64,000 nt of DNA from an uncultured Candidatus Saccharibacteria bacterium (GTDB lineage Bacteria; Patescibacteriota; Minisyncoccia; Phycocordibacterales; UBA1006): positions 3,929-67,928 of the forward strand of contig CAYXKF010000004.1 of assembly GCA_964464735.1 (NCBI GenBank), in the 5' to 3' direction. Of the stretch, positions 1 through 54,268 are shown piece by piece. The translations under genes were made by a program, and so were the position numbers. Position 1 is the stretch's first letter. Each line of letters starts with the position of its first letter. The notes under the pieces are model-generated. The model was not told the DNA's origin, did not search any database, and saw nothing but the letters and a program-made list of their open reading frames with translations.

Positions 1-34
1 CAGTTTTGGCATTGCCGTGTTTCGTTTTGCATGA

Positions 35-1813
35 CTAATGAAGTTCTTGCTGATAACAGTGATCGCAATAAATAACCCCGTCATTTGAATCATATACTGT
101 CTTAAACATATTAGGGCATGCATCGGTGCCATGGTTATGCATTCCAGTATTGGCATGAACACCTGCTTCGTCCTTTACCCCTTTACAGTGACATTGTTCG
201 TCCTTTAAGCGAAAACCTTTCATTACTGCCAGTCGTTCATACGTACGGCAGTTTGGACAGGTATCAGGCAGCGGTATCCCTAATTTTGAATACAACTGAA
301 GTTCTTGCTCAATAAGCCGAAATGCCGTCGTACATTTGCCATGGGTGGCATCCCCTTTATTCTTGCATTCTAAAACTTTGCCTACCAAAAAATCATTTTC
401 TGTAATTACATCAGGAATATCTTCATACTTATAGTCGGGAGAATACGCCCGCTCTTCTTGCTCTTTCCACTTCAAGCCACCAGCCAGCACAGCATCTTTC
501 GTAAGCGGAATCCAATCAGCAGCCATCGTCTCATTGTATGCATATGGACTAAGAGTCATAGGGAAAAACTCGCCCCATTCGCCGGTCGCAAGCATATGAT
601 CTTTTATCTTTTGATAAAGTGTTTGGTATTCTTCTTTCGAATAGCGCTTATTCAAAATACTAAATTCCCCTTTCTTTAAACCAATGCATCCAAGCAACTC
701 GTTCCCCGAATGGCAGTAATCCGAATAGTGGACATTCTTTCCTTTTAGGCAAAATACAACAACCATACTTCCATATGATTCGTCGGCAGTTGCGGTTTCA
801 TACGCCAGCTCCGCACGTCCGGTTACCGAGGCATCGTAACAATTTTTACCGCTATCGCCCATAAATAGATATTTACCATCCTCGAAGTCGCGATGGAAAA
901 AGGTTTCTTTGGCATTTTTACAGTTGACTAACACGTCGCCAGTACAATTGACACACTGGATCATATTTGCATACGGGCGCGGATGCACGCGGATCATTTC
1001 GGCAAGCTCAGTATGATATCCATTGATTGCCGCGCGTGAATTAAGCATCATTTCTTTTTTCTTTTGTTCGTATTCTTCTTTCGAATATCCTACGTTTCGA
1101 ATGTGATATTTTTTGTTGCGAAGGCCGACACACAAAATACAATCGGAACAGCCTTTCAGGTCGTGTGACAAATAGCAGTCGGTACAGCTGAAAGAATAGC
1201 GGCAATAAGCGCACCGGGCACATTTTTCTAGCCGGATACCCTGGCAACACATTTCGCTATGATACGTATACAACCCATCAATACTGTCTTTCACCCAACC
1301 CGTCATATACGAATACGCGACATTTTCAAGCTCCCATGCACAGACCGAAAGGTAGCAATTTTTAGAATAAAAATGGTCATAGGTGTATTCGCAGTTCGTA
1401 CTCCCAACGCCATCATCGTTGACCATGGCAATGCGCGGCACTACTGAATAAAGTTCTTTAAATTGCTCGAAGAAGGGTCGGGTAAAATCAAAGTCCCGAG
1501 CATAATTGTGGCCGCTCCAATCATCACTCCACCAGCAGTGATGGCAATATACCGGAAATGGCGAATTAGCCGGATATGTCGCAATAATATTTTTTGAGCA
1601 CCTATCGCACGTGCGCCGATAATACGAGCGCTCGTTACGATGGACAAGCCGCCGCTGCAGCCGGCATGCCGGACATAATTTTGGCGCAGGTACACCGATT
1701 TTTTCATAAAATCCAAAATCGTCGGGCTCGATGATAAATTGTCCCTTACAATTTGCACAGCTGCGTGTTTCACTTTGCATGCCCATAGTATATATCAAAT
1801 TTATATTGCGCAA
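35..1813 (-). CDS. Cys-rich zinc-ribbon protein, paralog 8 of the family arrayed at 33233-45247; the true start is probably the internal Met at ~1780 (MQSETRSCANCK...)
   Basis: 592-aa ORF. The N-terminus ETRSCANCKGQFIIEPDDFGFYEKIGVPAPKLCPACRLQRR and the C-terminus YCDHCYQQELH match the consensus of the tandem paralogs. The internal FGC..L..K.Y.I.NK.YSKEEY module is present, and Cys content is ~9%. Confidence 0.8.
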   Translation of the reverse strand: MRNINLIYTMGMQSETRSCANCKGQFIIEPDDFGFYEKIGVPAPKLCPACRLQRRLVHRNERSYYRRTCDRCSKNIIATYPANSPFPVYCHHCWWSDDWSGHNYARDFDFTRPFFEQFKELYSVVPRIAMVNDDGVGSTNCEYTYDHFYSKNCYLSVCAWELENVAYSYMTGWVKDSIDGLYTYHSEMCCQGIRLEKCARCAYCRYSFSCTDCYLSHDLKGCSDCILCVGLRNKKYHIRNVGYSKEEYEQKKKEMMLNSRAAINGYHTELAEMIRVHPRPYANMIQCVNCTGDVLVNCKNAKETFFHRDFEDGKYLFMGDSGKNCYDASVTGRAELAYETATADESYGSMVVVFCLKGKNVHYSDYCHSGNELLGCIGLKKGEFSILNKRYSKEEYQTLYQKIKDHMLATGEWGEFFPMTLSPYAYNETMAADWIPLTKDAVLAGGLKWKEQEERAYSPDYKYEDIPDVITENDFLVGKVLECKNKGDATHGKCTTAFRLIEQELQLYSKLGIPLPDTCPNCRTYERLAVMKGFRLKDEQCHCKGVKDEAGVHANTGMHNHGTDACPNMFKTVYDSNDGVIYCDHCYQQELH

Positions 1814-1840
1814 AACAAAAACCGCCCGATTAGGCGATTT
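1811..1840 (-). terminator. Possible weak intrinsic terminator overlapping the rplU stop (CGCC/GGCG stem followed by a U-run on the minus-strand transcript)
   Basis: The minus-strand RNA reads AUCGCCUAAUCGGGCGGUUUUUGUUUU. The stem is short. Confidence 0.3.
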
Positions 1841-2171
1841 TTGTGATCTTTACTTTTGTAAATGGTTGGCGGTGTCCGTAGCGGCGGTGATAGTTAGACT
1901 TTGCGCGAAATCGCTGGACCAAAATCTTCTTTCCTCGGCCTTCTTCCATAACCATGCCTGACACAGTGCTCGTTAGGTATGGAGACCCGACAGTGCTGGT
2001 TCCTGCTGCAGTGTTGGCAGTAAGGATAACCTTATCAAATACGACAGTCCTGTCATCCTTGATAGATTTTGCTGGAAGCTTCTCGATAGTGATGGTTGCC
2101 CCTTCTGATACCAAGTATTGCTTTCCGCCGGTCTCGATAACCGCGATTTGTGATGCTGTTTTCTTTGCCAT
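1830..2171 (-). CDS. rplU: 50S ribosomal protein L21
   Basis: MAKKTASQIAVIETGGKQYLVSEG...YGHRQPFTKVKITKI matches the L21 N- and C-terminal signatures. The ORF-track N-extension is probably not translated. Confidence 0.85.
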   Translation of the reverse strand: MAKKTASQIAVIETGGKQYLVSEGATITIEKLPAKSIKDDRTVVFDKVILTANTAAGTSTVGSPYLTSTVSGMVMEEGRGKKILVQRFRAKSNYHRRYGHRQPFTKVKITKIA

Positions 2172-2281: not shown

Positions 2282-3196
2282 ATGGTAGAAAAACATACTT
2301 TTGGCCCTGTTACTTGGATCGACATCGATTCGCCGACCTCAAGCGATATTGAAAACGCAACAAAAGATAATTTAGTGATGAGCGAAGCTTTGGTGAACGA
2401 ACTGTTGTTTCCAAGCCCGCGCGGACGCCTTTTTAAGGACGGCGAAGCATTATGCATTACGCTGCACTTTCCTATTGTCTCGTACCACCACAGCAATACG
2501 CACGTCGAGGAAATTGATTTTGTCATCACTCACGACCATCTAATCACGACCCGTTTTTGCGATGTCATGCCTCTGCACGAAGTGCGCCGTAAGTTAACAG
2601 TTGCCCAAGAACTTAACCGTTTGCCGTTTCATAGCGGTTTTGACTTATTTGCAATCGTGATCAGCGAGCTGTATAGCGCCATGGACCCAGAACTGTTAAA
2701 AGTTGACCGCTATATTGTTGATGCCGAAAAAAATATTTACGAGGGAAACCAAAAACTAGCCGTCGAACAAATTTCGCGCACGACCAAACGCATTATGAAC
2801 TTCCGTCGTGCACTGCAATACCACCCCGAAGTATTTATTGCGTACCGACAACTGATTGCAAGCGGGCATGCACCTACGTCGACCCAAATTATCGACCAGT
2901 TGATTCATGAATCAACACGACTGGTTTCGATGGTTGATGAACAAAAAGCAACAATCGAAGAATTTGCCGAAACAAATAAGACTCTTTTGTCGACCCACAA
3001 CGAAAACGTTATGAAAGTCTTTACCATTCTTGCATTCATTACCTTCCCCTTGACCTTGCTGGTAAGCATCTTGGCGCTCAATGAAAAAGTGCATGCGTTT
3101 GCCAATACCATCGAAGGTACTATGACTCTTATTGGTATCTCAATTATTGTTGCCGTCGCTATGATGATTTACTTTAAGCATAAAAAATGGATCTAA
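2282..3196 (+). CDS. CorA-family divalent cation (Mg2+/Co2+) transporter-like protein with an atypical A-L-N in place of the G-M-N motif
   Basis: 304 aa with a cytoplasmic N-domain and two C-terminal TM helices (FTILAFITFPLTLLVSILALNEKV...IIVAVAMMIYFKHKKWI). The CorA-like end is YFKxKxWI. Confidence 0.6.
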   Translation: MVEKHTFGPVTWIDIDSPTSSDIENATKDNLVMSEALVNELLFPSPRGRLFKDGEALCITLHFPIVSYHHSNTHVEEIDFVITHDHLITTRFCDVMPLHEVRRKLTVAQELNRLPFHSGFDLFAIVISELYSAMDPELLKVDRYIVDAEKNIYEGNQKLAVEQISRTTKRIMNFRRALQYHPEVFIAYRQLIASGHAPTSTQIIDQLIHESTRLVSMVDEQKATIEEFAETNKTLLSTHNENVMKVFTILAFITFPLTLLVSILALNEKVHAFANTIEGTMTLIGISIIVAVAMMIYFKHKKWI

Positions 3197-3197
3197 C

Positions 3198-4616
3198 ATG
3201 AAACCGATTCGCCTAACTAATACGCTCAGCAAACAAAAAGAAGTATTTACACCGATCACCGGCGGCAAAGTTGGCATGTACCATTGCGGGCCGACGGTAT
3301 ACTGGACACAACATATTGGCAACATGCGTGCGGTAACCATTTCTGATATTGTGCGCCGAGTATTCAAATACAACGGGTATGATGTCACCTTAGTACGAAA
3401 TTATACTGATGTTGGCCACTTAACCGGCGACAATATTGGCGATGCCGATACGGGCGAAGACCGTATGACCAAGGCAGTGCGACGCGAGAACCTGACGCCC
3501 GACGAAATCGCAAACAAATATATTGCGGTTTACAACAACGACATCGCAAGTCTAAATGTTATTCCTCCAAGCCACGATCCGCGTGCAACCGATTACATTC
3601 AACAAATGATAGAACTGGTCAGCGAGCTTTTGAAAACAGGCCATGCCTATACAACCGATTACGCGGTATACTTTGATGTTTCAACTTTCCCCGACTACAC
3701 CAAACTGTCTGGGCAAGAATTAAGCAAACTTGAGGCTGGCGAAGGGCATGGAACAGTTACCGACAACAACAAAAAGAATCCAAACGACTTTGCATTATGG
3801 TTTTTTAAAGCCGGATCACACGCAAATGCTTTGCAAACATGGCAGTCCCCTTTTAGCTCGCCACTGGTTCAAAACGGCGAAGGGTTTCCTGGTTGGCACA
3901 TTGAATGTTCGGCAATGAGCAAAGCATTTTTAGGAAACACCTTTGACATTCACATGGGCGGAATCGAACATATTCCGATTCATCACACTAACGAAATTGC
4001 CCAAAGCGAATGTGCAAACCATGCACACTTTGTAAACTATTGGCTGCATAACGAACACTTACTTGTCGACAATAAAAAAATGGCAAAGTCCGAAGGTACT
4101 TCGTATACCATTGCCGACATTACTGGAAAAGGATTTAGCCCAATGGCACTTCGATACTTTTTTTTGCAATCACACTATCGGTCAAAGCAAAACTTTACCT
4201 GGGAAGCACTTGAAGCGTCGCAAACTGCATATAAAAAACTTAAAGCCACTGTGGTCGCTTTGCCGCACAATGGAGCAATCAACGACACCTACAAAGATCG
4301 CTTTTTAGAAGCAATAAACGATGACATCAATATTTCTGCTGGCCTGGCAGTTGTTTGGGAATTATTAAAAGACACCAGTGTTTCGGATGCCGACAAAAAA
4401 GCAACTATTTTGGATATTGATACGGTGCTTGGATTAAACTTAGACGAAGTTGAAACAATTGAAATTCCCGCCGAAGTTCAAAAACTATTAGACGAACGCA
4501 AAGTTGCCCGCGAACAAAAAGATTTCAAAAAATCAGACGAACTACGCGATCAAATCAAAGCGCTTGGATTCGAAGTAAAAGATTCAGCAGACGGCCAAAG
4601 TATTTCAAAACTGTAA
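3198..4616 (+). CDS. cysS: Cysteinyl-tRNA synthetase
   Basis: Class I HIGH (HCGPTVYWTQHIGN) and KMSKS (KMAKSEG) motifs; 472 aa; CysRS-like zinc ligands. Confidence 0.9.
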   Translation: MKPIRLTNTLSKQKEVFTPITGGKVGMYHCGPTVYWTQHIGNMRAVTISDIVRRVFKYNGYDVTLVRNYTDVGHLTGDNIGDADTGEDRMTKAVRRENLTPDEIANKYIAVYNNDIASLNVIPPSHDPRATDYIQQMIELVSELLKTGHAYTTDYAVYFDVSTFPDYTKLSGQELSKLEAGEGHGTVTDNNKKNPNDFALWFFKAGSHANALQTWQSPFSSPLVQNGEGFPGWHIECSAMSKAFLGNTFDIHMGGIEHIPIHHTNEIAQSECANHAHFVNYWLHNEHLLVDNKKMAKSEGTSYTIADITGKGFSPMALRYFFLQSHYRSKQNFTWEALEASQTAYKKLKATVVALPHNGAINDTYKDRFLEAINDDINISAGLAVVWELLKDTSVSDADKKATILDIDTVLGLNLDEVETIEIPAEVQKLLDERKVAREQKDFKKSDELRDQIKALGFEVKDSADGQSISKL

Positions 4617-5165
4617 TTATTTTTCAGTACTTATTTCAAACGACACCGGACAGCCAATTATCGAGGCAAGCTTTTCAACCGGAATAACGCCGGTTAGTTC
4701 GCTGCCATCAGGAAAGCGCCACGTCGGATACGCCATAACTTTTTGGGCTTTGCATTCTTCGGTCTGACCATTACCATCAGGAGCCGAGCATTCAACATAC
4801 GGAAGGTCGGTATAAGTTGTTTTAAACAATGCTTTTTGCTGCGCACAATGCGGGCACCAAGAAGCGCCGTAAAACAACACACCGTTTTGTTTTAGACACT
4901 GGGCAGTATTCATAACAACCCGTGGTTGCACTGGTACTGCTTCTGTTTTTTCAGTTACGGTAATTTGTTCGGGAGCTATTGGCAAAACAGCATCATCTGA
5001 ACTTAGCACAATCCGCGAATCAAGCGCAGGTGGAATTTCCCAGACCTTATCTTGAACCTTAGGCTTGAACCACGTAAAAGGATTCCACCACACAGCCAAT
5101 GCGACTGATGGTACGGTGGCAATAATCACAACTGCGGCTAATAAAAACGAGAAATGCTTTTTCAT
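4617..5165 (-). CDS. Membrane-anchored thioredoxin-fold thiol-disulfide oxidoreductase (WCPHC active site)
   Basis: Signal anchor MKKHFSFLLAAVVIIATVPSVALA, then a Trx-like domain with YGASWCPHCAQQK. Confidence 0.7.
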   Translation of the reverse strand: MKKHFSFLLAAVVIIATVPSVALAVWWNPFTWFKPKVQDKVWEIPPALDSRIVLSSDDAVLPIAPEQITVTEKTEAVPVQPRVVMNTAQCLKQNGVLFYGASWCPHCAQQKALFKTTYTDLPYVECSAPDGNGQTEECKAQKVMAYPTWRFPDGSELTGVIPVEKLASIIGCPVSFEISTEK

Positions 5166-5197
5166 ATAGATAAACAGTAACGCATTTGTACAAAAAA

Positions 5198-6373
5198 TCA
5201 ATGATGATGGCCCGCGTGCTCGATAAGCCTAGTCTCGCTTTCGATCTGTTCGCTGCTTCCCACTTCGGATTTTTTAATAAGCATCCATGATGCAATAAAG
5301 GTCGTTATTGGTACTGCCAAAATAAGCCCGATTGATCCGACCAAAATACGCACAATTTCGGTTGCAAACATTTCTTGGTTGATAATTGGTACCGAATTGC
5401 CCATCGCACCAGTGTGTGAAGAACTATAAAACTGAAGCAGTAATAAAAGTGGCAGTGACGCACCGACGTACGCGATCGCCAAAGTATCAACCAATGCGCC
5501 AATATGCTCGCGACCCATACGGATTGCGCGCTTATAAATTGAAGTGCGCGGAATATGCGGCGCGATCTTGTGAAGTTCCTCGACTGAAATTGCCTGACTA
5601 ATTGCAATATCGTATAGCACACCCAAAAGTCCGATCATGATTCCGCCAAACAATAATCCGGCAAAATCAATCTTATTGGGAATTGCCGCGCTTAGATAAA
5701 TGGCTTCTTCGTCACCTAATCCGGTTAAGTGCCCAAAGTGCATCGCACCGTACGCAAGCAACCCGGCAAAAACAACTGTCCCCAACATGCCCAAAACCGC
5801 TGCGCTGGTTGTCTTGTTAAATCCATGCGTAATGTATGATCCTACGACAATAATGACGGATGCCACAACAATACTTACCAGCACCGGCGAATAGCCGTGC
5901 AATATTGCCGGCATCAAAACGTATAAAATCAATACGATGCTTCCAGCCAAACTAACCAGTCCGCGAATACCCTGCATGCCGCCAAAAATAACAACCGCAA
6001 GCAAGAACAGTGCCAACAAAACATACAAGGCGCCCATACGATTGTAATCATGGACGGTATAGGTGTTTTGGTATGGCTCTTCAAAGTTTTGAGTATGGAT
6101 AAGATAAAACACGTCGCCCGTTTTAAGCGGCATGTAATCATTATGTACGGTTATTTCTTTTCCTTTTTCTTCCTTGTTAATGATCTTTGCGCTGACGGTT
6201 TGATCAACTAGTTCGACGCCCAAGATATCGTCGTTTGCTATCGGATTATCAACAACCGATATCACTTTTGCACGAAGGGTAGTATTAACTACAGTACCTG
6301 CATACGCCGTTTGATACGAAGAAAAAAAGCCCAACCCAACAACCAGCAATGCTATGGCGCACAGATATTTCAT
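5198..6373 (-). CDS. YibE/F-like polytopic membrane protein
   Basis: N-terminal signal plus an extracytoplasmic domain, followed by multiple Gly/Leu-rich TM helices (LVSLAGSIVLILYVLMP..., LFGGIMIGLLGVLYDIAIS). Confidence 0.45.
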   Translation of the reverse strand: MKYLCAIALLVVGLGFFSSYQTAYAGTVVNTTLRAKVISVVDNPIANDDILGVELVDQTVSAKIINKEEKGKEITVHNDYMPLKTGDVFYLIHTQNFEEPYQNTYTVHDYNRMGALYVLLALFLLAVVIFGGMQGIRGLVSLAGSIVLILYVLMPAILHGYSPVLVSIVVASVIIVVGSYITHGFNKTTSAAVLGMLGTVVFAGLLAYGAMHFGHLTGLGDEEAIYLSAAIPNKIDFAGLLFGGIMIGLLGVLYDIAISQAISVEELHKIAPHIPRTSIYKRAIRMGREHIGALVDTLAIAYVGASLPLLLLLQFYSSSHTGAMGNSVPIINQEMFATEIVRILVGSIGLILAVPITTFIASWMLIKKSEVGSSEQIESETRLIEHAGHHH

Positions 6374-6391
6374 ACAGTCAGTGTATGAAAA

Positions 6392-7141
6392 TTATTCAAC
6401 CAATACAAGTGCCGCCATTGCCGCAACACCAACACATACCGCAATAAACTGAAGAATAGTTTGTTTTGTTCCTTTGGCTTGATGCAATTCGGGAATCAAG
6501 TCAGCCGCGGCAATATAAATAAATCCTCCGGCGGCGATTGGCAAAAACCACAAGCTTGCACTTTGTGCAGCGCTTCCCAAAATAAAAGCGACAACGACAC
6601 CCAATACTGCGCTTAGGGCAGAGACAAAGTTAAGCAATAGCGCTTTACCGCGCGCATAGCCTGCATGAATCAAAACGCCAAAATCCCCGATTTCTTGCGG
6701 AATCTCGTGCAAGATAATGGCAATTGTTGTCGCAATACCAAGCTCGACGCTGACCATATAGCTTGAGGCCAACACAAGCCCATCGATAAAATTATGCAAG
6801 CCATCGGATACCAAAACCATCTTTCCGCTGTGGTGCACATGTGCGTGGCCGTCGTCGGCACCGTGATGGTGCCAATGAAAGAATTTTTCAAGCAAAAAAA
6901 ACAACAGCATGCCGCCGATAATCAAAAGCGAAATGACAAAACCATTTGACGCTTGCTCGAACGCTTCGGGAATCAAATGAATGAACGCGTCGCCCAAAAG
7001 CGCACCAACGGCAAGACTTACCATAAAGAACACATATTTTTTAATGCGATCTTCTTTAAGCGACAAGGTTGCAATGCCGATAAACGAAACAAGGCTTATG
7101 ATAATGACACTGGCGAACGCATAGATGTAAGTTATAGCCAT
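6392..7141 (-). CDS. zupT: ZIP-family zinc transporter (ZupT-like)
   Basis: His-rich loop HHHGADDGHAHVHHSGK and the ZIP signature HEIPQEIGDFGVL. It is divergent from a Fur-family regulator. Confidence 0.8.
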   Translation of the reverse strand: MAITYIYAFASVIIISLVSFIGIATLSLKEDRIKKYVFFMVSLAVGALLGDAFIHLIPEAFEQASNGFVISLLIIGGMLLFFLLEKFFHWHHHGADDGHAHVHHSGKMVLVSDGLHNFIDGLVLASSYMVSVELGIATTIAIILHEIPQEIGDFGVLIHAGYARGKALLLNFVSALSAVLGVVVAFILGSAAQSASLWFLPIAAGGFIYIAAADLIPELHQAKGTKQTILQFIAVCVGVAAMAALVLVE

Positions 7142-7171
7142 ACCCTTACAGTATACACAGTATTTTAATAG

Positions 7172-7188
7172 ATGCAAATCATTTGCAT
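7172..7188. promoter_or_regulatory. Perfect 17-bp palindrome ATGCAAATCATTTGCAT in the zupT/zur divergent intergenic region; candidate Zur/Fur-family operator
   Basis: The inverted repeat (8-1-8) is read directly. It lies between divergently transcribed zupT and a Fur-family gene. Confidence 0.55.
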
Positions 7189-7223
7189 TTACAATGTATC
7201 CAGTATTTGCTACACTTATACAT

Positions 7224-7625
7224 ATGGAAGACATCAAAGCATTACTAAAAGAAGCAAAACTAAAAGTTACTCCTGCGCGCTTAGCCATACTAGAGGCACT
7301 TCACGCATCAAAAAAACCGCTTTCGGTACAAGATCTTATGAAGTCGCTGAAAGGTATTGATTCGGTTACCCTGTATCGCACGCTTGAATCATTTGCCGAC
7401 AAAAATATCATTGCGCGCATTTTGATTTCGCAAGACCGCGCGCATTACGAATTTGTGCATCATCACCATCATCACATCGTATGTACCAAGTGCGGCTTGG
7501 TCGACGATATTCCCCACTGCGTCATGGATATGATTGAAAAGGATGCGCTTAAGCATGCAAAAAACTTTAAAGCGATTTCGTCGCATAGCCTTGAGTATTT
7601 TGGAGTCTGCAAAAAATGCGCGTAG
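7224..7625 (+). CDS. zur: Fur-family metalloregulator, probably Zur (zinc uptake regulator)
   Basis: Winged-helix N-domain; HHHHHH plus CTKCG...HC...CKKC metal sites; divergent from the ZIP transporter. Confidence 0.75.
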   Translation: MEDIKALLKEAKLKVTPARLAILEALHASKKPLSVQDLMKSLKGIDSVTLYRTLESFADKNIIARILISQDRAHYEFVHHHHHHIVCTKCGLVDDIPHCVMDMIEKDALKHAKNFKAISSHSLEYFGVCKKCA

Positions 7626-12702: not shown

Positions 12703-12769
12703 AAATTACAAACAAAAAACACATCTTTAACCAGATGCGTTTTTGTTTTTATCGGAATGCCCTATTAAT

Positions 12770-13825: not shown

Positions 13826-13850
13826 ATAAAAACTCCCCGAAGGGAGTTTT
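13826..13850 (-). terminator. Intrinsic terminator immediately downstream of the rpsI TAG stop
   Basis: The minus-strand RNA is AAAAACUCCCUUCGGGGAGUUUUUAUAU. It is bidirectional. Confidence 0.7.
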
Positions 13851-13852
13851 TA

Positions 13853-14969: not shown

Positions 14970-15980
14970 CTACTCGCTTTTAAGTGTTATGTCAAATGCT
15001 TTTAGGGCATCCTTGATTTCGTTAATACCCTTTTGTCCAAGACCTTCAATCTCAAGCAAATCAGCTTCGGTTTTTCGAACCAAGCCGCCGATGGTGCGAA
15101 TATTTGCCTGATTAAGCACGTTTTGGATGCGGGTTGGAACTTGTAACTTGTCGATGCGGGTCTTTAGTGTGTCATTCATTGACTCTTGGTCAACTTCGTC
15201 TTCGGTGCCTACTGATGCAGTTTCTGCAATGCTTTCAAATGCTGCTTCATCGGCAACAACTGATTCGCGTGCAATGCCGATAGTCTTTGGTTCGATGTAT
15301 AAATCCAAGATAGCTGAGCACTGTTGGATCATAATAGATAGTGATCGTTCGACCGCCTCACGTGCAGTAAGTGATCCGTCAGTTTCAACACTGATGATTA
15401 ATTTGTTGTAATCGGTTCGGTCACCTACACGCATTTTTTCTACTTCGTAGCTTACCTTACGAATTGGGGTAAACGCTGCGTCAACCAAAATAGAGCCGAT
15501 GGCAACTTTTTCTTTGCCACGCATGTCCTTGGTCACAAAACCAATGCCGTTTTCGACGGTGATCTCGACTTGCAAGTCGTCCTTACCGGTTACTTCACAT
15601 AGGTATAATTCTGGGTTCATGACTTCAACCTGTCCGCTTGCTTCGATGTCGGCGGCAGTAACAACCTTAGGGCCTTTTACCTTAAGGGTAAGAATCTGAG
15701 GTTCTTCTGATGTAGATTGAAAACGCACCTTCTTAAGGTTTAAAATAAATGCAATGACGTCTTCGCGAACGCCATTCATCGTTGAAAATTCATGATCAAC
15801 ACCCTGGATGCGCAATGTTGTCATTGCCGAGCCTGGGATTGATGAAAGGATGATTCGGCGCAGCGAGTTACCCAACGTATGTCCGTAACCTGGGTACAGG
15901 CCCTCGATTTCGTAGGTGCCCTTTTTACCCTCTTCGTGAACCACTTTTAACTTTGATGGCAAAAGAATATCGTGTGTCAT
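14970..15980 (-). CDS. rpoA: DNA-directed RNA polymerase alpha subunit
   Basis: 336 aa; N-terminal dimerisation domain and alpha-CTD (IEGLGQKGINEIKDAL). Confidence 0.9.
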   Translation of the reverse strand: MTHDILLPSKLKVVHEEGKKGTYEIEGLYPGYGHTLGNSLRRIILSSIPGSAMTTLRIQGVDHEFSTMNGVREDVIAFILNLKKVRFQSTSEEPQILTLKVKGPKVVTAADIEASGQVEVMNPELYLCEVTGKDDLQVEITVENGIGFVTKDMRGKEKVAIGSILVDAAFTPIRKVSYEVEKMRVGDRTDYNKLIISVETDGSLTAREAVERSLSIMIQQCSAILDLYIEPKTIGIARESVVADEAAFESIAETASVGTEDEVDQESMNDTLKTRIDKLQVPTRIQNVLNQANIRTIGGLVRKTEADLLEIEGLGQKGINEIKDALKAFDITLKSE

Positions 15981-16011
15981 ACGCGTGTGCGATAAAATAA
16001 AACTAATAATA

Positions 16012-16605
16012 TTAACGGCTGTAGAACTCGATCACTGACTGAAAGTCTAGAAACGCATCAGGATTTTTAGGATCCCCCGAAACAGAGATAGTAAGGTCAG
16101 TTGGCTTTACGGTTAGCCACTGTACTGCATTAGTATCGGTAAATTCTTTTTTAAAGTATGTGCTGTTTTTGCTGCCTTCGCGAACGGTTACAACATCTTT
16201 CGCTTGTAATGCATACGAAGGAACGGTCGTGCGGGTTCCGTTTACGGTAAAGTGACCGTGAGATACCAATTGGCGCGCGGCGCGGCGTGTTGGCGCAAGC
16301 TTTGCGCGGTAGACCACGTTGTCGATGCGTGATTCAAGCATTTTAAACAATGCCTCGGCAGGAGAAATGTTTGAGCGCTTTGCAATTGCCTTGTTGACAT
16401 AATTACGAAACTGCTTTTCCGAAACGCCATACGTAAAGCGCACCTTTTGCTTTTCGATCAGCTGCTTTCCGTAATCGCTGGTACGCGAAGGGCGACCGCT
16501 TTTCGTGCGCTTTTTTGAAGCATCAAAACGAGGCGACGCGCATTGGTCGAAAATCGGAGCTCCCAGACGGCGGGCGATTTTGAATTTTTTTAGTTTCATT
16601 GGCAT
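16012..16605 (-). CDS. rpsD: 30S ribosomal protein S4
   Basis: LESRIDNVVYRAKLAPTRRAARQLVSHGHFTVNG S4 domain. Confidence 0.9.
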   Translation of the reverse strand: MPMKLKKFKIARRLGAPIFDQCASPRFDASKKRTKSGRPSRTSDYGKQLIEKQKVRFTYGVSEKQFRNYVNKAIAKRSNISPAEALFKMLESRIDNVVYRAKLAPTRRAARQLVSHGHFTVNGTRTTVPSYALQAKDVVTVREGSKNSTYFKKEFTDTNAVQWLTVKPTDLTISVSGDPKNPDAFLDFQSVIEFYSR

Positions 16606-17891: not shown

Positions 17892-19163
17892 TCAATGAGC
17901 TGCTGTCTTTACGTGGATTTTAGCTTCATTTTTGGGGATCTTTGGCATCCAAAATGGACGAAGTTTGATAATTGCCCCTTCGATTGTCGGCTTTGCGGCA
18001 AAAATAGCCTTAAGGTCAGCAAAACGCTTACCGGCCAGCTGGGTTCCAAGCGTTTTGGTATCAATAACGGCGTACGCATCCAACGTGCCGTTTTGCACCA
18101 CCTGGATAGTTTGCGTTTGCGTTGGATCAGTTTGCGACTGGCTTTGCAGTGCAAGCGTTGCGGTCGAAGTATCAGATACAGTATATGTTGCGCGCACATC
18201 AGGAAGCGTGATACCTGCCGTTGCAACAACATCATGAACAAATTCGTCTTTTGAAACTACATATGCATACACTGCGCCGGTAAGCACTGCGTCGTGTGCC
18301 GTTTCAGAGTCGCTACGCTTCTCTACCTTTAAATCTGCAAATGAATATTGGATACTACCATCAACAAGCAGATAATCCTCGTTGATGTGGCGGCGGATCA
18401 ATTCGGAACCTTCGACGCGGATGCGTTCGACAAGCTTGTCGTGGATCATGGTTTTTTCGTCAGCCGACACCGTTGGCTGCATGCCCGAGCCGCCACCGGT
18501 TATGGGCGACTTTGACCGTGCATATTGGGTCTTAAACTTAGGACTTTTTGCTTCGCGCCAACCAGGGATCACAAAATCTGTCGGACTTTGGTTGTAATCA
18601 GCACCAGCTTCGGCAGCCTCGATCGTCACTTCAAGCGATCCGGGTTTTTCTTTGGTGCCGGCAGGAACAGTAAATGGTTGATCCTTTAAAATGTAATAAA
18701 TTTTTCCATTGGGCGCTTCTAAACGTGTGCGCTCTTTCAGCGATTGCGCCGGGCCTTCGTTAAAAAGTACGACGCTTCCGGTCGCCTTGGTTGAAACTTC
18801 TTGCATCGTAACGGCACTTACTTTTTCGGTCTTGGTTACCGGAAGCACCACCAAGTGAAAACCGGCCATACCAGCAGGTGCATCCTTGGTTAAGTTTTTG
18901 GTTCCTGAAATTGGCACGTTAACCCGATGCGGCGAGGCGCTGACATTTACGTGCCCTGTTACCGATGCAATGACAATTGCAATCACCAGGCTTGCGATCA
19001 AGATACCCAAAAGCACGTACCAGCGCTGGGTGCGCAGGTAGCTTACGTGCGAATTATTTACAAACACCCGAGGCTCTGATTTTGGCGCCGGCGATTCGGC
19101 ACGCGGTGCTGGGTTTGAAAATTTGCCTTCAAATGTATTATTTTTGCGGATACCGTCAATCAT
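17892..19163 (-). CDS. Hypothetical single-pass membrane-anchored protein (423 aa)
   Basis: One N-proximal TM helix (WYVLLGILIASLVIAIVIASV), then a large extracytoplasmic domain; no recognised motif. Confidence 0.5.
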   Translation of the reverse strand: MIDGIRKNNTFEGKFSNPAPRAESPAPKSEPRVFVNNSHVSYLRTQRWYVLLGILIASLVIAIVIASVTGHVNVSASPHRVNVPISGTKNLTKDAPAGMAGFHLVVLPVTKTEKVSAVTMQEVSTKATGSVVLFNEGPAQSLKERTRLEAPNGKIYYILKDQPFTVPAGTKEKPGSLEVTIEAAEAGADYNQSPTDFVIPGWREAKSPKFKTQYARSKSPITGGGSGMQPTVSADEKTMIHDKLVERIRVEGSELIRRHINEDYLLVDGSIQYSFADLKVEKRSDSETAHDAVLTGAVYAYVVSKDEFVHDVVATAGITLPDVRATYTVSDTSTATLALQSQSQTDPTQTQTIQVVQNGTLDAYAVIDTKTLGTQLAGKRFADLKAIFAAKPTIEGAIIKLRPFWMPKIPKNEAKIHVKTAAH

Positions 19164-20218
19164 AAGTGCATTATATGTGATCGTTTAATAATATGTGCTG
19201 CTTCGCGCAGTGCCTGGTACCGTTTTGTACCCGGATACAGCACTGACTGCATTGATTCAATAACTGTTGGTGAAATTTCAAAGTGTCCCGGGGCAACAAT
19301 CGAAAGGCGTTCAAGCGTATGGGCATCAAGTGTGCGTTCGAATTCGTGGCTATGACTAAGCATTGCTTCGCGAAGACCTTTTGCAAGCTGTTTAGTAAAA
19401 AGTGGTTCGTGGCGCCGCGCTATGCCAAGCTGATTGCCAAGCATCATCCATGTTCGTGCGGTCGGCGACAGAGCAGCATATGCATGATAAATACCAACAG
19501 GAAGCGAATGCATTTGGATGCGGTTTTTTTGCGCAACAACGATTGATGAAACCGTGTCGCCCACCACCATCAGCGCTTGCCCGTTATGCAAGGATGCAGA
19601 ATTAAAACCACGCAAGACCTGCAGTGTTGCCGATGATACCTGTAAAACCGTAATGTCGGCGCGTTCGCCGTGTTCGCGGATTGCACGGTACGTTTTTCGA
19701 GGACAAATGCTTGCACCATACAAAAATGAATATTCTTTTGCACGCACTTTTTGAGCAAGCGGAAGGTTTACATCATATCCGTTAACCTTAAGGCTATACA
19801 GTACCGCGTCGACAAACCCATGGTCATTTTTTTCGGCTGCAAAATCGCGATCAAGTTCGGCCCAGGCGCGTTTTTGCAAGTCCTTCATAACTGCACGGGT
19901 AAACGCATCAGCACCCAGCTGTTTTTCGGCGTTATATTCATGCGTTACATAGTGAAAAACTGTATGCGTAAAAGCATCAGCCAAAATGCAGGTAACTGTT
20001 GGCTTATGAGAAAACCGCCACGCGCGCTTAATAAACATCGTGGCTCGCTTAAACGAACTTACCAAGTGATGATGATATCGTTTTGGCGACAGTGCGTCGT
20101 CATAATCGGCACATGCAGCGATCACGATCGAATTTCCCCGCTCGTCGCGCGCATAAATTTCGAACGAATGAACGTCAAAAAAAATAACAAAGTCGCTGGT
20201 AAGCCGATCGTTGATCAT
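19160..20218 (-). CDS. Hypothetical protein (352 aa), possibly an actin-like ATPase-fold protein
   Basis: Codon-consistent long ORF overlapping the upstream gene by 4 nt. The fold assignment is a guess only. Confidence 0.4.
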   Translation of the reverse strand: MINDRLTSDFVIFFDVHSFEIYARDERGNSIVIAACADYDDALSPKRYHHHLVSSFKRATMFIKRAWRFSHKPTVTCILADAFTHTVFHYVTHEYNAEKQLGADAFTRAVMKDLQKRAWAELDRDFAAEKNDHGFVDAVLYSLKVNGYDVNLPLAQKVRAKEYSFLYGASICPRKTYRAIREHGERADITVLQVSSATLQVLRGFNSASLHNGQALMVVGDTVSSIVVAQKNRIQMHSLPVGIYHAYAALSPTARTWMMLGNQLGIARRHEPLFTKQLAKGLREAMLSHSHEFERTLDAHTLERLSIVAPGHFEISPTVIESMQSVLYPGTKRYQALREAAHIIKRSHIMHL

Positions 20219-22049: not shown

Positions 22050-22080
22050 GTAATAAAAAAAGCCCCGCTTATCGGGCTTT
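22050..22080 (-). terminator. Intrinsic terminator downstream of mgtC
   Basis: Minus-strand AAGAAAGCCCGAUAAGCGGGGCUUUUUUUAUUACC. Confidence 0.7.
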
Positions 22081-22081
22081 C

Positions 22082-22591
22082 TTATGAAGCGTCAGAACTA
22101 TCTTTCGAATTTGAATACAGCTTGTGCTTAAGTGCTTCTTCGATTCCGTGTAGCCCAGACAATACAATAAGCACCAAAACGGTCGCGGCAATTGCCAAAG
22201 TTACGTATCCAAACCCGCACGCAACACCAATGGCTGCCGCTGCCCACATGGCACTTGCGGTCGTTAGGTTGTCGACATGTTCTTTATTATGAAAGATAAG
22301 CCCAGCGCCCAAAAAGCCGATTCCGGTAACTACGCTTGCCGCAACATGGATGGGCGACATACTGATGGCGTTTGACATGCCATGCTGAAGATACTGCATC
22401 ATAGCGATTTCAGAAATTGATACAAACAATGCAGCAGCCATCGAAACTAGCGCGTAGGTTCGCATGCCTGCCGACTTATGGCGGACAATGCGCTCGAACC
22501 CAATTGCCATACCAAGCAGCAGCGCAACAACAATGCGCACAATCATAACTGAAATTACTGGTTCGATCATGCAGTAATTATAGCATGTCAA
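22082..22591 (-). CDS. mgtC: MgtC/SapB-family membrane protein
   Basis: Resembles the MgtC N-terminal signature (RIVVALLLGMAIGFERIVRHKSAGMRTYALVSMAAALF). Confidence 0.75.
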   Translation of the reverse strand: MTCYNYCMIEPVISVMIVRIVVALLLGMAIGFERIVRHKSAGMRTYALVSMAAALFVSISEIAMMQYLQHGMSNAISMSPIHVAASVVTGIGFLGAGLIFHNKEHVDNLTTASAMWAAAAIGVACGFGYVTLAIAATVLVLIVLSGLHGIEEALKHKLYSNSKDSSDAS

Positions 22592-24628: not shown

Positions 24629-25888
24629 CTACATTGGAAGGTTGGCTGGCGGTTCAGCCTTGCGTGACTGAATGCGCCCAACGCTTGGGCTTTGCAATAC
24701 GCGGCCCGGAAGGTGGAATATGGTCGCGATTTCGTCGGCAGTCATCACGTTTACAATATGGCGCTGCACCGGCGCAGTAAAAAAGCGATGGTAGATGTCA
24801 TACCACGAAAAGCTGTAAAAATGATCGTGATACATGCGCAATACATATTCTTCAAACTGGTACCGTCGTTGGCGGTCAGTTATGGTATCATTGACGTCTT
24901 GCCACGGGTTGTCAAAACCAGTCATCGCCACGCGCTTTAAGGTGTTTAAGTTCCAGCTATTAAAGCTTTCAAACAAGTGCTTGATGTTGCGGTGCTTGTT
25001 ACCGTCGTAGTTTGATTTTTTAGCAATGTAAATAACGCGGATACCCACCTTCCAAGCATGCTGTGAGATTTTACGCTCGATCTTTTCGATAATTTCCTGT
25101 TCACCCTTGGTGATGGTGCGGAATTTTTTCCATACATTTGTTGCTGTGTCATTACTTTGATGGCTTGGATCATCGCGATCAAGGATTTTGTTAATCGCCT
25201 TCTTGCCACCCTCACGCCAACTATCATCCTTTTCAGGCTGGATGATGATTTGGATCCAAAAGTATTCGTTTTTGCGCACCGTTGTGCCCATGGCTTCAAG
25301 CATGTTCACCAGCGGGTCAATTTGTTGATCAGGTTCAAGTGTTTCAAGTTTTTTATCGGTACCCAAATCGCGGTATGTCTTGATAGGCAAATGACTTGGC
25401 TGGGTCAAGCGAAAATCTCCCGAGTACATGCGGTAATCGCCTTCAGGATGAAACGGCGGGATCAGCTTGGTGTAATCTTCAGCTTCAACGACTTGCGCCT
25501 GTGGGTACTGGGCATAAATTTGTGAGGTAATAATGTCGCGGTGGTATGCCGGCGTACGGATATAAAAATGGATCTGGCCCTCAAGTGAAACAATTTCAAG
25601 AGAAAACCACGCCAAGATGCGGCCTTGGAAATATTTTTTGTAAAAGTTACCCACGCCACCTGTTTGCCACATCGAGTTCATCAAGATAAGTTCCATCGCT
25701 TCAGGCGAACGCCGAATTTCCTTAGGGACACGAATTTCAAGCAAGACCCACGGAACACTGGCCGCATGCAAATAACGCTTATAGTAAACACGCGTCCAAA
25801 ATGCCGAGTATGCCAAAAAAATCACGAACAGTGTCGCAATAATATCGCCCAACGAAGGAAGAAAAGAAAGAATCGGCGTAGAGTTCAT
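24629..25888 (-). CDS. Hypothetical N-terminally membrane-anchored protein (419 aa)
   Basis: N-terminal TM (IIATLFVIFLAYSAFW); no recognised motifs. Confidence 0.5.
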   Translation of the reverse strand: MNSTPILSFLPSLGDIIATLFVIFLAYSAFWTRVYYKRYLHAASVPWVLLEIRVPKEIRRSPEAMELILMNSMWQTGGVGNFYKKYFQGRILAWFSLEIVSLEGQIHFYIRTPAYHRDIITSQIYAQYPQAQVVEAEDYTKLIPPFHPEGDYRMYSGDFRLTQPSHLPIKTYRDLGTDKKLETLEPDQQIDPLVNMLEAMGTTVRKNEYFWIQIIIQPEKDDSWREGGKKAINKILDRDDPSHQSNDTATNVWKKFRTITKGEQEIIEKIERKISQHAWKVGIRVIYIAKKSNYDGNKHRNIKHLFESFNSWNLNTLKRVAMTGFDNPWQDVNDTITDRQRRYQFEEYVLRMYHDHFYSFSWYDIYHRFFTAPVQRHIVNVMTADEIATIFHLPGRVLQSPSVGRIQSRKAEPPANLPM

Positions 25889-26071: not shown

Positions 26072-26117
26072 ATAAAAAATGTCTGTTGGATTTTGAGTTG
26101 TTTACGTAAAAGAAAAA

Positions 26118-26145
26118 CCCGATCCTATGACCGGGCTTTTCTTCG
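26118..26145 (-). terminator. Intrinsic terminator downstream of the sigma-r4/HARE-HTH gene
   Basis: Minus-strand CCCGGUCAUAGGAUCGGGUUUUUCUUUU. Confidence 0.55.
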
Positions 26146-26156
26146 TTTGTCGTGTG

Positions 26157-27203
26157 TTACTTAGTCGTATATCGTCCGTCGTCAAGCTTTTTGAAATACT
26201 TTTGGTTCTGTAGATTTACCAAGATAGTGTTTTTCTTTAGATAGCGTTCTTTCAAAACTTTTTCAATGACTTCTTCTTTGGTAAGTGGGCCTTCGGCTTT
26301 AAGGATATCGGCAATGACTTCGCGTACCACACCTTTTTTATATCCCCATTCGCGAAGCGCATATACGCCGCGGCCAACCAATACAAAACGTTCATCCTTA
26401 ATCAATTCGTTATGGCAGGTTGCAGTATGCACCTTGCGGCCAAAAATCTTTTCGATGGCCTGCGCTACTTCACGAAAGTGCATCGGAGAGCCGTGCTTGC
26501 GCATAACAAGGTATGCATAATCTTTTACGCCGCGAGTTTTTACCGCTGATGAATCAGCATGTCCCCACTCACCTAATGGGTTCGGTGCGATCTTGTTTGA
26601 AAGGTCAAGCCATCGGCGAGCAATATCGCTATTTTTATGTTCATCCTTAATTTTACCTGCATGTTCGTGACCCAAGATTTTTTGCAATACTTCGCCTTCA
26701 GAAATCAGGTCGCCATGCTGAATTGAACTGTGAATATCCTTTAGGATTTTCTTTACTACGTCCGCCGTCTCGCTGTCGACAACCCAATGGGTCTTAAAAT
26801 GTTCGTCATCCTTAACCTTAGCAAATTGATCACCTAAGACCAGGTATAAATGCACATGATTTTGTGTCAGCCGGTCATTCGACATATGGTCAAGCAAATG
26901 TTTTTCCTCGACAACGCCGCCAAGACTGTGCATGATCTCGCCCATCTCGTCAAAAATCTGCTTTGCCTCATTGAATGAGCTTGACTTGCGAATCGCTTGC
27001 AATGCAAAGTTTTCAATTTGGCGTACACGCTCACGGGTTATCTTGTATTCTTGCCCGATTGAATCAAGCGTGCGTCGTTCGCCGTCGCCCTCAAGACCAA
27101 AGCGGTTTACCACAACATAGCGCGAACGGTCCTGGAGGTTACCAAGAAGTTTTTTTGTAAGCTGTTTGGGTTTAAAAGTAAGCGAAGCTTTTTTTGTAGA
27201 CAT
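26157..27203 (-). CDS. DNA-binding protein with a sigma-70 region-4-like HTH followed by a C-terminal HARE-HTH/winged-helix-like domain
   Basis: DSIGQEYKITRERVRQIENFALQAIRK (sigma r4-like); C-terminal GSPMHFREVAQAIEKIF...GVYALREWGYKKG resembles the RNAP delta N-domain/HARE-HTH. Confidence 0.45.
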   Translation of the reverse strand: MSTKKASLTFKPKQLTKKLLGNLQDRSRYVVVNRFGLEGDGERRTLDSIGQEYKITRERVRQIENFALQAIRKSSSFNEAKQIFDEMGEIMHSLGGVVEEKHLLDHMSNDRLTQNHVHLYLVLGDQFAKVKDDEHFKTHWVVDSETADVVKKILKDIHSSIQHGDLISEGEVLQKILGHEHAGKIKDEHKNSDIARRWLDLSNKIAPNPLGEWGHADSSAVKTRGVKDYAYLVMRKHGSPMHFREVAQAIEKIFGRKVHTATCHNELIKDERFVLVGRGVYALREWGYKKGVVREVIADILKAEGPLTKEEVIEKVLKERYLKKNTILVNLQNQKYFKKLDDGRYTTK

Positions 27204-27296
27204 AGTTATTGGCTTTGCAGGTAGCAATGAATAATGTGGTGTAATAAAGACCAAGTCATACTAGCATAACTGACTGTACTGTCAAGTACCCTTATT

Positions 27297-31107: not shown

Positions 31108-31174
31108 GTCCGTTATTTTTTTATGTTCACCAGCAAACTACCATGAAAAAACGCCCCTTTCAAGGCGCTTTGTT

Positions 31175-31764: not shown

Positions 31765-32298
31765 TTATAAGTGCTTGGCAATTGCCTCGATGACTTCTGG
31801 AAACGTATCTTGCGGATAAAAGTGACCTCCCTTTTCTAATTCGTAATAATCGGCATCAAGCATGTTTGCCACATGGCGGGCTTCGGCGATTGGAATATGC
31901 GGATCATCAACGGCATTAAACTCGATAATCCACTTTTGGTTATTCTTAATCGCTTGCCAATCCCATGGTGTATCAAAATATTCGGCATCAATTTCGGACT
32001 GGATATTCATATGTGTGTGATAGGTGCCGATTAACACCGAGCCAAGTATTTTGTGAGTTTGTGCGTATCGCATAGCCGCAATTGCACCGGTCGAATGGCC
32101 GATCAAAATAGTATTTTCGTCAGCGTTCAATGACTCAATATAGGGCATCCAAATTGACTCACGGCCAATTTCAGAATCAGGAAAAATTCCCGGCGAAATT
32201 ACTTTGATACCTAATTTTTCAAGCTCGGTTTTTAAATACGGAAAAAAATTCTGGTTCGTATCACCTCCACCATTTCCGGGCAAAAAGATTGCACGCAT
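31765..32298 (-). CDS. Alpha/beta hydrolase, YdeN/RBBP9-like serine hydrolase
   Basis: GHSTG nucleophile elbow; ~178 aa from the internal Met MRAIFLPGNGGGD. Confidence 0.55.
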   Translation of the reverse strand: MRAIFLPGNGGGDTNQNFFPYLKTELEKLGIKVISPGIFPDSEIGRESIWMPYIESLNADENTILIGHSTGAIAAMRYAQTHKILGSVLIGTYHTHMNIQSEIDAEYFDTPWDWQAIKNNQKWIIEFNAVDDPHIPIAEARHVANMLDADYYELEKGGHFYPQDTFPEVIEAIAKHL

Positions 32299-32299
32299 G

Positions 32300-33214
32300 T
32301 TACTTTTCATATCTTTTAACAAATGCCAATACTTCGGAACGTTGCGGTGAATTTGAAGCACCAAATCGCTGCACCTTAAGTGCCGAGGCGGCGTTCGCAA
32401 GATGGATTGCATCACGAATAGACTTCCCCTGGGCCAACAATGCGGCAAATGCGCCAGTAAAGCAATCGCCTGCGCCCGTAGTATCGGCAGCTTTTACCTT
32501 AAATACAGGCTCATACCAGATATATACCGGATCTGCATATACGATACCGGTTTTACCAAGCGTTACCAGCACGGCTGTATTCGTTTTTACGGCAAGTTTT
32601 TGCGCTGCTATAGTAATCGCTTTTTTGTTTTTACCATCAACTTTCTTATTTATATAAAATGAAAGCTCGGTTTCATTCACACATAAGATATCGGTATATT
32701 CAATGATTCCTTTCTCAAGCTGAAGTGCGGGTGCAGCATTTAAAATGGTAACCACTTTCCTTTCTTTTGCCTTTTTGAATAGTGCAAGTATGGATTTTTG
32801 CGGCACCTCGAGTGTCGCTAGTGCAACATCGCCATCCGAAAATAACATGCCTGAAGACTTCAAAGTAGTATCGGTATTTGCGCCACTTGAAACAGCAATG
32901 ACATTTTCCCCATCCTTCGAAACCATGATCATCGCTACCCCAGTTGGTTTTTTTGATTTGGATACAATAAGTTTCGCAAATTCTTGTGATTTTAAAAATG
33001 ACAAAACATCTTTTCCAAAACTATCGCGTCCTATGGTGCCAATGATCGAGGTCGGCGCTTTCATACGATTTGAAGCAAGGGCTTGATTAAGCCCCTTACC
33101 GCCGGGAATATACGATACATCGCCGCCAATGACCGTTTGTCCAGAATTTGGCGCCGAATCAACCGGTACCGTAATATCCATATTTATGCTTGCGAGTACG
33201 ATGACTTTTGACAT
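32300..33214 (-). CDS. rbsK: PfkB-family sugar kinase (ribokinase-like)
   Basis: GGKGLNQA and DTTGAGD motifs. Confidence 0.8.
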   Translation of the reverse strand: MSKVIVLASINMDITVPVDSAPNSGQTVIGGDVSYIPGGKGLNQALASNRMKAPTSIIGTIGRDSFGKDVLSFLKSQEFAKLIVSKSKKPTGVAMIMVSKDGENVIAVSSGANTDTTLKSSGMLFSDGDVALATLEVPQKSILALFKKAKERKVVTILNAAPALQLEKGIIEYTDILCVNETELSFYINKKVDGKNKKAITIAAQKLAVKTNTAVLVTLGKTGIVYADPVYIWYEPVFKVKAADTTGAGDCFTGAFAALLAQGKSIRDAIHLANAASALKVQRFGASNSPQRSEVLAFVKRYEK

Positions 33215-36648: not shown

Positions 36649-36650
36649 AC

Positions 36651-38399: not shown

Positions 38400-38401
38400 A
38401 T

Positions 38402-40078: not shown

Positions 40079-40080
40079 AA

Positions 40081-41811: not shown

Positions 41812-41813
41812 GG

Positions 41814-45247: not shown

Positions 45248-45275
45248 AGCAGTAGTGCCAGTATACTCTTTTGCT

Positions 45276-51793: not shown

Positions 51794-51805
51794 TTTTTCA
51801 TCGCA

Positions 51806-51840
51806 AACAAAAAAACCGGCATTCGCCGGTTTTTTTGTTT
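51806..51840. terminator. Bidirectional intrinsic terminator between doxX and the RRM-protein gene
   Basis: AAAAAAACCGGC-ATTC-GCCGGTTTTTTTG. Confidence 0.85.
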
Positions 51841-54207: not shown

Positions 54208-54228
54208 GATGAAAGTATAGCACAAAAA

Positions 54229-54247
54229 ACCGGCACAGGGCCGGTTT
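54229..54247. terminator. Bidirectional intrinsic terminator
   Basis: AAAAAACCGGCACAGGGCCGGTTTTTTT. Confidence 0.75.
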
Positions 54248-54268
54248 TTTTGAATAGCAAAGTTGATG

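Follow-up and report, generated by a model that had tools for sequence, protein, structure and literature searches.

Why does a copy of a cysteine-rich zinc-finger gene lie directly behind rplU, the gene for ribosomal protein L21, when seven of its paralogs stand together 31.4 kb away, and does that position tell us anything about how the copy is expressed? The question arises in 64,000 nucleotides (nt) of DNA from an uncultured Candidatus Saccharibacteria bacterium (assembly GCA_964464735.1, contig CAYXKF010000004.1, positions 3,929-67,928), the whole of which we refer to as the window. The gene, here called T, encodes a protein of 581 residues and occupies 35..1780 on the minus strand, from an ATG supported by orthologues to a TAG stop codon at 37..35. 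Its place beside rplU is real and, as genome anatomy, ordinary; because that placement is unconserved and uninformative on regulation, it matters little alone. What follows is therefore as much about the family to which T belongs as about the spot where this copy happens to lie.

T and its paralogs

The open reading frame (ORF) of T reaches upstream to a TTG at 1813 (35..1813, minus strand). Since its orthologues begin MQSE.. or MSVE.., the true start is the ATG at 1780, which gives the 581-residue protein; the deposited protein, P0001, begins two codons before this ATG. Aligned with the seven arrayed genes, as the preliminary description of this DNA had proposed, T matches them from end to end at 34-40% identity, and it matches a hidden Markov model (HMM) of the family over HMM positions 1-577 (E=1.7e-248), which bears out the earlier view that this is a full-length copy carrying the N- and C-terminal motifs of the family. 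Those motifs, CxxC...FYxK..VPxP..CxxCRxxRR at the N-terminus and YCxxCYQxE at the C-terminus, are invariant in T and the array, and every Cys column that is at least 77% conserved in the family stays Cys in T (the zinc sites Zn1-Zn4, together with C142, C211, C214, C217, C356 and C365). An unbroken ORF that keeps every ligand rules out a pseudogene, and the ordinary GC content of T (0.44) rules out a foreign island. For the flanking DNA, look-ups based on proteins encoded in the window turned up no record. When metagenome contigs were scanned for exact matches to window positions 1-60, none came up; a scan of such contigs for close relatives gave a single one, at 38%.

Judged by its sequence, T is almost certainly a genuine member of the family and an old one. 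In a distance-based neighbour-joining tree (312 sequences, 100 bootstraps), for which the homologue set was skewed toward relatives of T, it falls in a clade with P0002, P0004 and the copy at locus L001 (P0003) at 100% bootstrap, whereas the smallest clade that unites it with any array member takes in 181 of the 312 sequences and has 4% support. A phylogeny had been suggested at the outset as the check on the age of this copy, and the answer is that T joins orthologues from other genomes and not the array members. It is thus extremely unlikely that T is a recent duplicate of an array gene transposed to a new site. The two do share family, strand and genome, but the best relatives of T, from other genomes, are 58-62% identical to it (dozens more reach 45-50%) against the 34-40% of the array members, its GC content shows nothing out of the ordinary, and the well-supported grouping with cross-genome orthologues rules such a duplication out. 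Six of the seven array members likewise group with cross-genome partners, as a pair or in a small clade, at 100% bootstrap (A5 at 58%), the partners coming from L044, L029, L022, L070 and other loci, and the sole window paralogs that share a subfamily are A1 and A2. This cross-genome grouping implies that all full-length copies in the window represent ancient lineages and that none is a recent amplification.

The preliminary description held that the family is both dispersed and tandemly amplified. Both statements hold, with the amendment that T is not solitary: an overlooked ninth paralog starts 2 nt past the T stop codon (1..32, minus strand, ATG at 32..30) and reads MQNETRQCQN plus a partial Cys codon before the window edge cuts the gene. 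The motif E[TI][KR]xC[QAK][NK] occurs nine times in the six frames of the window, solely at the nine gene starts. The family HMM, run on window ORFs of at least 100 codons, finds exactly eight full-length copies and missed the ninth because of its truncation and that length limit. The locus beside rplU thus holds two or more genes in tandem, spaced by 2 nt as in the main array. A split, multi-locus distribution is common in the family; L057 and L066, for example, share a contig, with ~25 kb between them and ~39 kb from one start to the other.

The main array (33233..45247, minus strand) consists of exactly seven paralogs, A1-A7, on the same strand as T and directly downstream of a PBP2/FtsI-like gene, in agreement with the seven copies first reported at a distance of 31 kb. 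Its ORFs appear to carry 'MLSxR' N-terminal extensions and 25-nt overlaps, an artefact that arises when the conserved CYQQE codons of the gene before are read out of frame. Translation begins instead at the ATG of MET(R/K)xC, which lies 2 nt past the previous stop codon or overlaps it as ATGA. These 2-nt gaps and ATGA overlaps mark the main array as a translationally coupled operon. A candidate sigma-70-like promoter, TTGAAT-N16-TATACT, can be read at 45260..45287 (minus strand), where it overlaps the PBP2 stop codon and lies 12 nt before the first array ATG.

The junction with rplU

The gene for L21 (113 residues; 1830..2171, minus strand) lies immediately upstream of T, as had been described, with a gap of 49 nt on the same strand from its stop codon to the ATG at 1780. 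Typical bacteria have a ribosomal protein operon of the form rplU-(ysxB)-rpmA. T resembles a member of such an operon in that it follows rplU on the same strand, but rpmA is missing here, a terminator comes between rplU and T, and related genomes do not keep the arrangement. The last of these points comes from ~89 non-redundant related loci, 80 of them from species-representative genomes and nine from close-orthologue look-ups, which share phylogenetic ancestry, so that counts over them lack independence. The preliminary description had asked whether homologous genomes keep an rplU-linked copy, and the outcome was negative: rplU is adjacent to a family gene in 0/~89 loci. It lies within 2-4 kb of one in three (L079, L085 and L088), which is about the chance level, as a mean locus length of 11 kb and a genome size of ~0.8 Mb lead one to expect ~1.2.

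Instead, the ten best T-type orthologues are scattered over unrelated positions, eight of them as members of tandem clusters. That of L001 is inside a three-gene array, that of L002 is the fifth and last of five, ahead of an ATPase resembling type IV coupling proteins (T4CPs), and that of L089 belongs to a five-copy cluster; in L088 it is the second of two copies, with rplU 1.9 kb downstream and GalT and one further gene intervening. Others are found beside VanY and MraY (L004), after rpoC (L006), and beside Ser_hydrolase and infA-rpmJ-rpsM (L087). Of the proposed old, separately maintained rplU-linked locus, then, the age stands and the linkage does not, and the adjacency to rplU is very probably incidental. 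One neighbour does recur: in L087 the Ser_hydrolase gene (5500..6066) directly follows the closest orthologue of T, and in the window a Ser_hydrolase gene lies just beyond the 3' end of the main array (31765..32448, minus strand), after a PfkB kinase gene. This shared neighbour hints that T may once have stood at the end of the array.

The 'possible terminator' that had been noted between the two genes corresponds to a 13-bp hairpin (1815..1844, minus strand; ACAAAAAUCGCCU/AAUC/GGGCGGUUUUUGU, then UUUG), recognised by sequence reading, folding and a custom scan, which has the A-tract, GC core and U-tract of an intrinsic terminator and carries the rplU stop codon at the top of its 5' arm, just 5' of the loop. 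The same scan found ~10 other A-tract/GC/T-tract hairpins at gene 3' ends in the window, among them those at 12715..12744, 13827..13852, 22056..22083, 26109..26144, 31148..31171, 51805..51840, 54224..54250 and 62129..62149, with examples behind the genes ending at 12770, 22082, 26157 and 31175; it found none between main-array genes. Because hairpins of this type recur at gene ends, the one behind rplU seems to be the usual terminator form of this genome; a generic consensus terminator scan did not return it. Several of the terminator hairpins in the window are bidirectional in form.

Downstream of the hairpin arm, a weak promoter-like stretch, TTGCGC-N15-TATACT (1787..1813, minus strand), can be read ahead of T. 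Its TATACT -10 element stops 6 nt short of the ATG at 1780, so that a leaderless transcript, or one with a very short leader, would be expected. The corresponding stretch of the main array appears to be the better of the two, and it is absent from the generic promoter scan. Taken at face value, these signals suggest that T is probably transcribed for the most part independently of rplU.

The suggestion that its position gives T growth-linked expression through rplU therefore finds no support, as the linkage is unconserved, the terminator hairpin separates the genes and a -10-like TATACT precedes T. We consider it improbable that T is an old locus kept beside rplU, with a shared transcript tying its expression to the synthesis of ribosomal proteins. 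The shared strand, the short gap to the ATG and the age of the copy would fit such coupling, as would the three loci with rplU in the vicinity, one of which (L085) also has, near its family gene, the divergent pair of cysteinyl-tRNA synthetase (CysRS) gene and rplU that is seen in the window. What speaks against it is that adjacency was never found among the related loci and proximity occurs about as often as chance predicts, that the closest orthologues are elsewhere (in L087 by Ser_hydrolase and infA-rpmJ-rpsM, in L001 inside an array), and that a terminator of the usual class stands between the genes.

Architecture and breadth of the family

T shares with its family an architecture in which a double zinc finger is followed by two beta-solenoid-like modules and a second double zinc finger (ZZ-S-S-ZZ). 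The N-terminal finger module (residues 3-85; 1526..1774, minus strand, as for the other modules) holds the ligands of Zn1 (C8/C11/C36/C39) and Zn2 (C58/C61/C79/C82), with an Arg-rich helix after them. Profile-profile comparison (hhalign), by which the internal duplications were established, matches these residues to ~468-573 of T with a probability of 99.7%, so that the C-terminal module (~467-581; 38..382) is an internal duplicate of the N-terminal one. Of the two central modules, S1 (residues 127-244; 1049..1402) is Cys-rich and beta-solenoid-like and ends in GLRNKxYxIxNxxYSKEEY, and S2 (residues 276-392; 605..955) is its internal duplicate, with a probability of 99.95%. Across 312 homologues, which average ~36 Cys per protein, the strongly conserved Cys are those of the four terminal zinc sites and, in the centre, C211-x2-C214-x2-C217, C142, C356 and C365. 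The fingers are not all indispensable, it seems, since P0003 and P0004, both of the T subfamily, lack the last zinc site (their C-terminus is Cys-free) and P0003 additionally lacks half of the first-site ligands.

A full-length AlphaFold 2 (AF2) model, with a predicted local distance difference test (pLDDT) score of 84 and a predicted template modelling (pTM) score of 0.86, is confident for the fingers and S2 and weak for S1, in which the modelled strands recur with a ~6-residue periodicity. Foldseek returned weak beta-helix look-alikes only (best E=0.037, template modelling (TM) score <=0.17; for the isolated core E>=0.09), and superposition on left-handed beta-helix or hexapeptide-repeat proteins was not significant (best E=0.037, TM <=0.12). 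The likeness to beta-helix and solenoid proteins such as LpxD, gamma-carbonic anhydrase, pentapeptide-repeat and pectate-lyase-like proteins is thus weak and non-specific (E>=0.037, TM <=0.17); the family lacks catalytic motifs, and model confidence is low in this part of the protein. No signal peptide or transmembrane segment is visible in the sequence of the T N-terminus.

The terminal modules resemble two Pfam families described as 'probable treble clef', zf_Tbcl (PF13451) and zf_Tbcl_2 (PF23477), in their CxxC...CxxC ligand sets, including the CxxC...PVYCxxC form that is also found at the C-terminus of neighbouring T4CP-like ATPases. These are domains of ~40 residues without an assigned function, in contrast to the ~570 residues of the ZZ-S-S-ZZ proteins. 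T itself matches zf_Tbcl at residues 5-44 with 18.1 bits (E=0.0026), below the gathering cut-off of 24, and does not match zf_Tbcl_2, for which the cut-off is 27 bits and paralog A7 reaches 14.1. Among 55 family members, 28 match zf_Tbcl and 13 match zf_Tbcl_2 at E<0.1, and some relatives pass the zf_Tbcl threshold (P0120 is annotated PF13451). No Pfam or NCBIfam family is above threshold for T, and none models the whole architecture or the S module; Rfam and NCBIfam gave nothing relevant, and the PADLOC defence-system models match neither T nor paralog A6. A sequence search of the PDB gave a sole match, to LIM-like proteins such as 1ctl, which is not significant (E=0.23). The LIM fingers of cysteine-rich proteins do share two consecutive Cys/His zinc sites of similar spacing with the C-terminal module, but at this E value homology is not shown.

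The family is uncharacterised and specific to Patescibacteria. A database search returned more than 4,188 relatives of T, all unnamed or 'hypothetical' and from Patescibacteria, and an exhaustive profile search gave 5,688 clusters at 50% identity, 2,327 of them at E<=1e-30. Length is uniform across the clusters (545-600 residues), and the named sources of members are all metagenome-assembled genomes of Patescibacteria. A search of the literature on PF13451, on cysteine-rich paralogs of Patescibacteria or Parcubacteria and on zinc ribbons of the candidate phyla radiation found no description of the family.

Neighbouring ATPases and possible function

The genes that accompany the family elsewhere offer a further clue. 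When all flanking ORFs of 83 related loci were clustered, the commonest neighbours proved to be soluble ATPases with TrwB_AAD_bind/TraG-D_C domains and a membrane protein of ~450 residues, type c. The ATPases fall into a type a, which bears a C-terminal zf_Tbcl_2 finger of the kind found in the family, and a type b without it. A T4CP-like ATPase lies within +-6 kb in 20/83 loci and is directly adjacent in 13/83, and the order b, array, a recurs in L015, L036, L054 and L060. In these and in L002, L011, L047, L062 and L088 a recurrent cassette can be made out, with the ~450-residue membrane protein and a TrwB/TraG-like ATPase upstream of the array, a second ATPase with C-terminal zf_Tbcl_2 downstream, and often CutA1 and a sigma70_r4/HARE-HTH gene nearby. 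In L088 the gene abutting a family gene encodes a larger T4CP-like ATPase that has DUF8128 at its N-terminus. A 2025 survey counted 5,713 VirD4-like homologues in 2,918 Patescibacteria genomes, of which 148 were near virB4, and its authors consider that the orphan T4CP homologues were possibly exapted (PMC12102498). With about two such mostly orphan homologues per genome (PMC12102498), adjacency by chance would be expected at ~0.5% of loci, well under 1%. The arrangement recalls type IV coupling proteins (VirD4/TrwB/TraG) with their substrates or adaptors, in that family arrays are flanked by such ATPases in many genomes. It differs from those systems in that no relaxase or VirB4 is seen in the family loci and none of these ATPases in the window; no secretion signal is known for the family, and the link is one of neighbourhood only.

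In the window, a homologue of the type-c membrane protein (24629..25888, minus strand; no Pfam match) follows a sigma70_r4/HARE-HTH gene (26157..27254, minus strand), as the two also stand together in L034 and L036. The presence of this pair apart from any ATPase or array suggests that an ancestral cassette has come apart here. Elsewhere in the window, the segment 14000..20300 has a higher GC content (0.46-0.48) and a GC skew near zero or positive; it contains rpsD and rpoA (14970..16605) and two ORFs (17892..20218) with weak Baseplate_J and HopA1 matches.

The account that on balance we favour, with modest confidence, is the following. T is an intact orthologue of an anciently diverged subfamily, 'T', of the ZZ-S-S-ZZ family, in a genome whose copies, at least nine in number, represent at least eight old lineages if the ninth, which is truncated, is left unclassified. 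Seven copies make up the translationally coupled operon (33-45 kb) and at least two a second tandem cluster right after rplU, which would be the product of genome rearrangement and not a conserved member of a ribosomal operon. With rplU ending in an intrinsic terminator, the weak promoter ahead of T would most likely drive the bulk of transcription of this second cluster, to which read-through might contribute. The protein would be cytoplasmic and might, though our confidence here is low, hold at least four structural zinc ions in its terminal treble-clef fingers; the Arg-rich finger helices and the solenoid body could then be binding surfaces for nucleic acid or protein, and the paralogs could be specialised partners, whether adaptors or cargo, of orphan T4CP-like ATPases. 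Going by anatomy and neighbourhood alone, our best guess is that T acts alongside such ATPases as a zinc-dependent binding scaffold. A functional link between the family and the ATPases is accordingly put forward as tentative, and the fuller proposal, that the family is a conserved set of partners (adaptors, cargo or co-assembling subunits) of orphan VirD4-like ATPases in an unrecognised cassette of the order c, b, array, a, is somewhat doubtful.

Several observations count against this account. AF2 confidence in the central domain is low (pLDDT 51-72 within the full-length model), the isolated S-S core scores lower (pLDDT 67.8) than the full-length model and makes the fold assignment no sharper, and the fold searches returned nothing below E=0.03. 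The promoter proposed for T matches the -35 consensus at three of six positions, has a spacer of 15 and is absent from the output of the consensus promoter scan. About three quarters of the 83 loci have no ATPase within 6 kb, and, as the loci are not phylogenetically independent, the enrichment of ATPases is no formal statistic. No T4CP-like ATPase occurs in the 64-kb window, whose first position falls within the ninth copy, and there is a second recurrent context, with MraY, FtsW or MurG in 6-9 loci and PBP2 adjoining the main array here.

It is this second context that would favour a role in the cell envelope, in which the proteins are cytoskeletal or envelope scaffolds, bactofilin-like beta-helix polymers assembled through their terminal fingers and working with cell-wall and division genes. 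Besides the PBP2/FtsI gene directly upstream of the main array, MraY, FtsW, MurG, ScpA/B, VanY and M23 peptidase genes recur near family genes in 5-9 loci; the core is modelled as beta-solenoid-like, and the tight translational coupling of the paralogs suggests stoichiometric assembly. Such a role nevertheless seems unlikely to us, as the loci linked to division and cell-wall genes look like one syntenic group (L004, L010, L037 and others), neither sequence nor fold matches bactofilin or another polymer, and T4CP-like ATPases turn up beside the family more often and at closer range. Those same ATPases, together with the multi-copy arrays and the restriction of the family to episymbiotic Patescibacteria, could be taken to mean that the proteins are variable secreted or surface effectors, exported as type IV-like substrates to act on the host and diversified in an arms race. 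We regard this as quite unlikely: the N-terminus shows nothing of an export signal or membrane anchor, the subfamilies are ancient, with orthologues conserved across classes, and the uniform length and architecture over ~5,700 clusters fit conserved, housekeeping-like roles and not rapid diversification.

A different use of the many cysteines, as zinc buffers or as iron-sulphur or redox proteins in place of binding scaffolds, has in its favour their sheer number and the C-x2-C-x2-C(-x2-C) motif at C211/C214/C217, which resembles cluster-binding motifs. Genes for CorA, CysRS, a YibE/F protein and a ZIP zinc transporter also lie within 2282..7288, <=7 kb from T, which is probably a coincidence. 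Even so we hold such a function to be very unlikely, given that conservation in most of the central Cys columns is no more than 50-60% and that some orthologues (P0003 and P0004) have lost whole finger ligand sets. The neighbouring transporter genes do not recur in other loci, and for that reason ZIP, CorA and CysRS were dropped as a functional hint for T.

To return to the partner-set proposal, if it is true the c-b-array-a cassette may underlie the trafficking of DNA or protein in episymbiotic Patescibacteria, and the cluster beside rplU would be a displaced piece of that cassette. Whatever the fate of that idea, the family is of greater interest than the position of any one copy: it comprises thousands of clusters found in Patescibacteria only, unannotated and without a whole-protein domain model or a structural relative, and its ancient paralog subfamilies have been kept in tightly coupled arrays that recur beside the unexplained orphan T4CP homologues of the phylum. 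The most useful lead is this recurrent pairing with coupling-protein-like ATPases. If the link is functional, the family would provide a concrete handle on what these ATPases do in a group of host-dependent and little-understood organisms.

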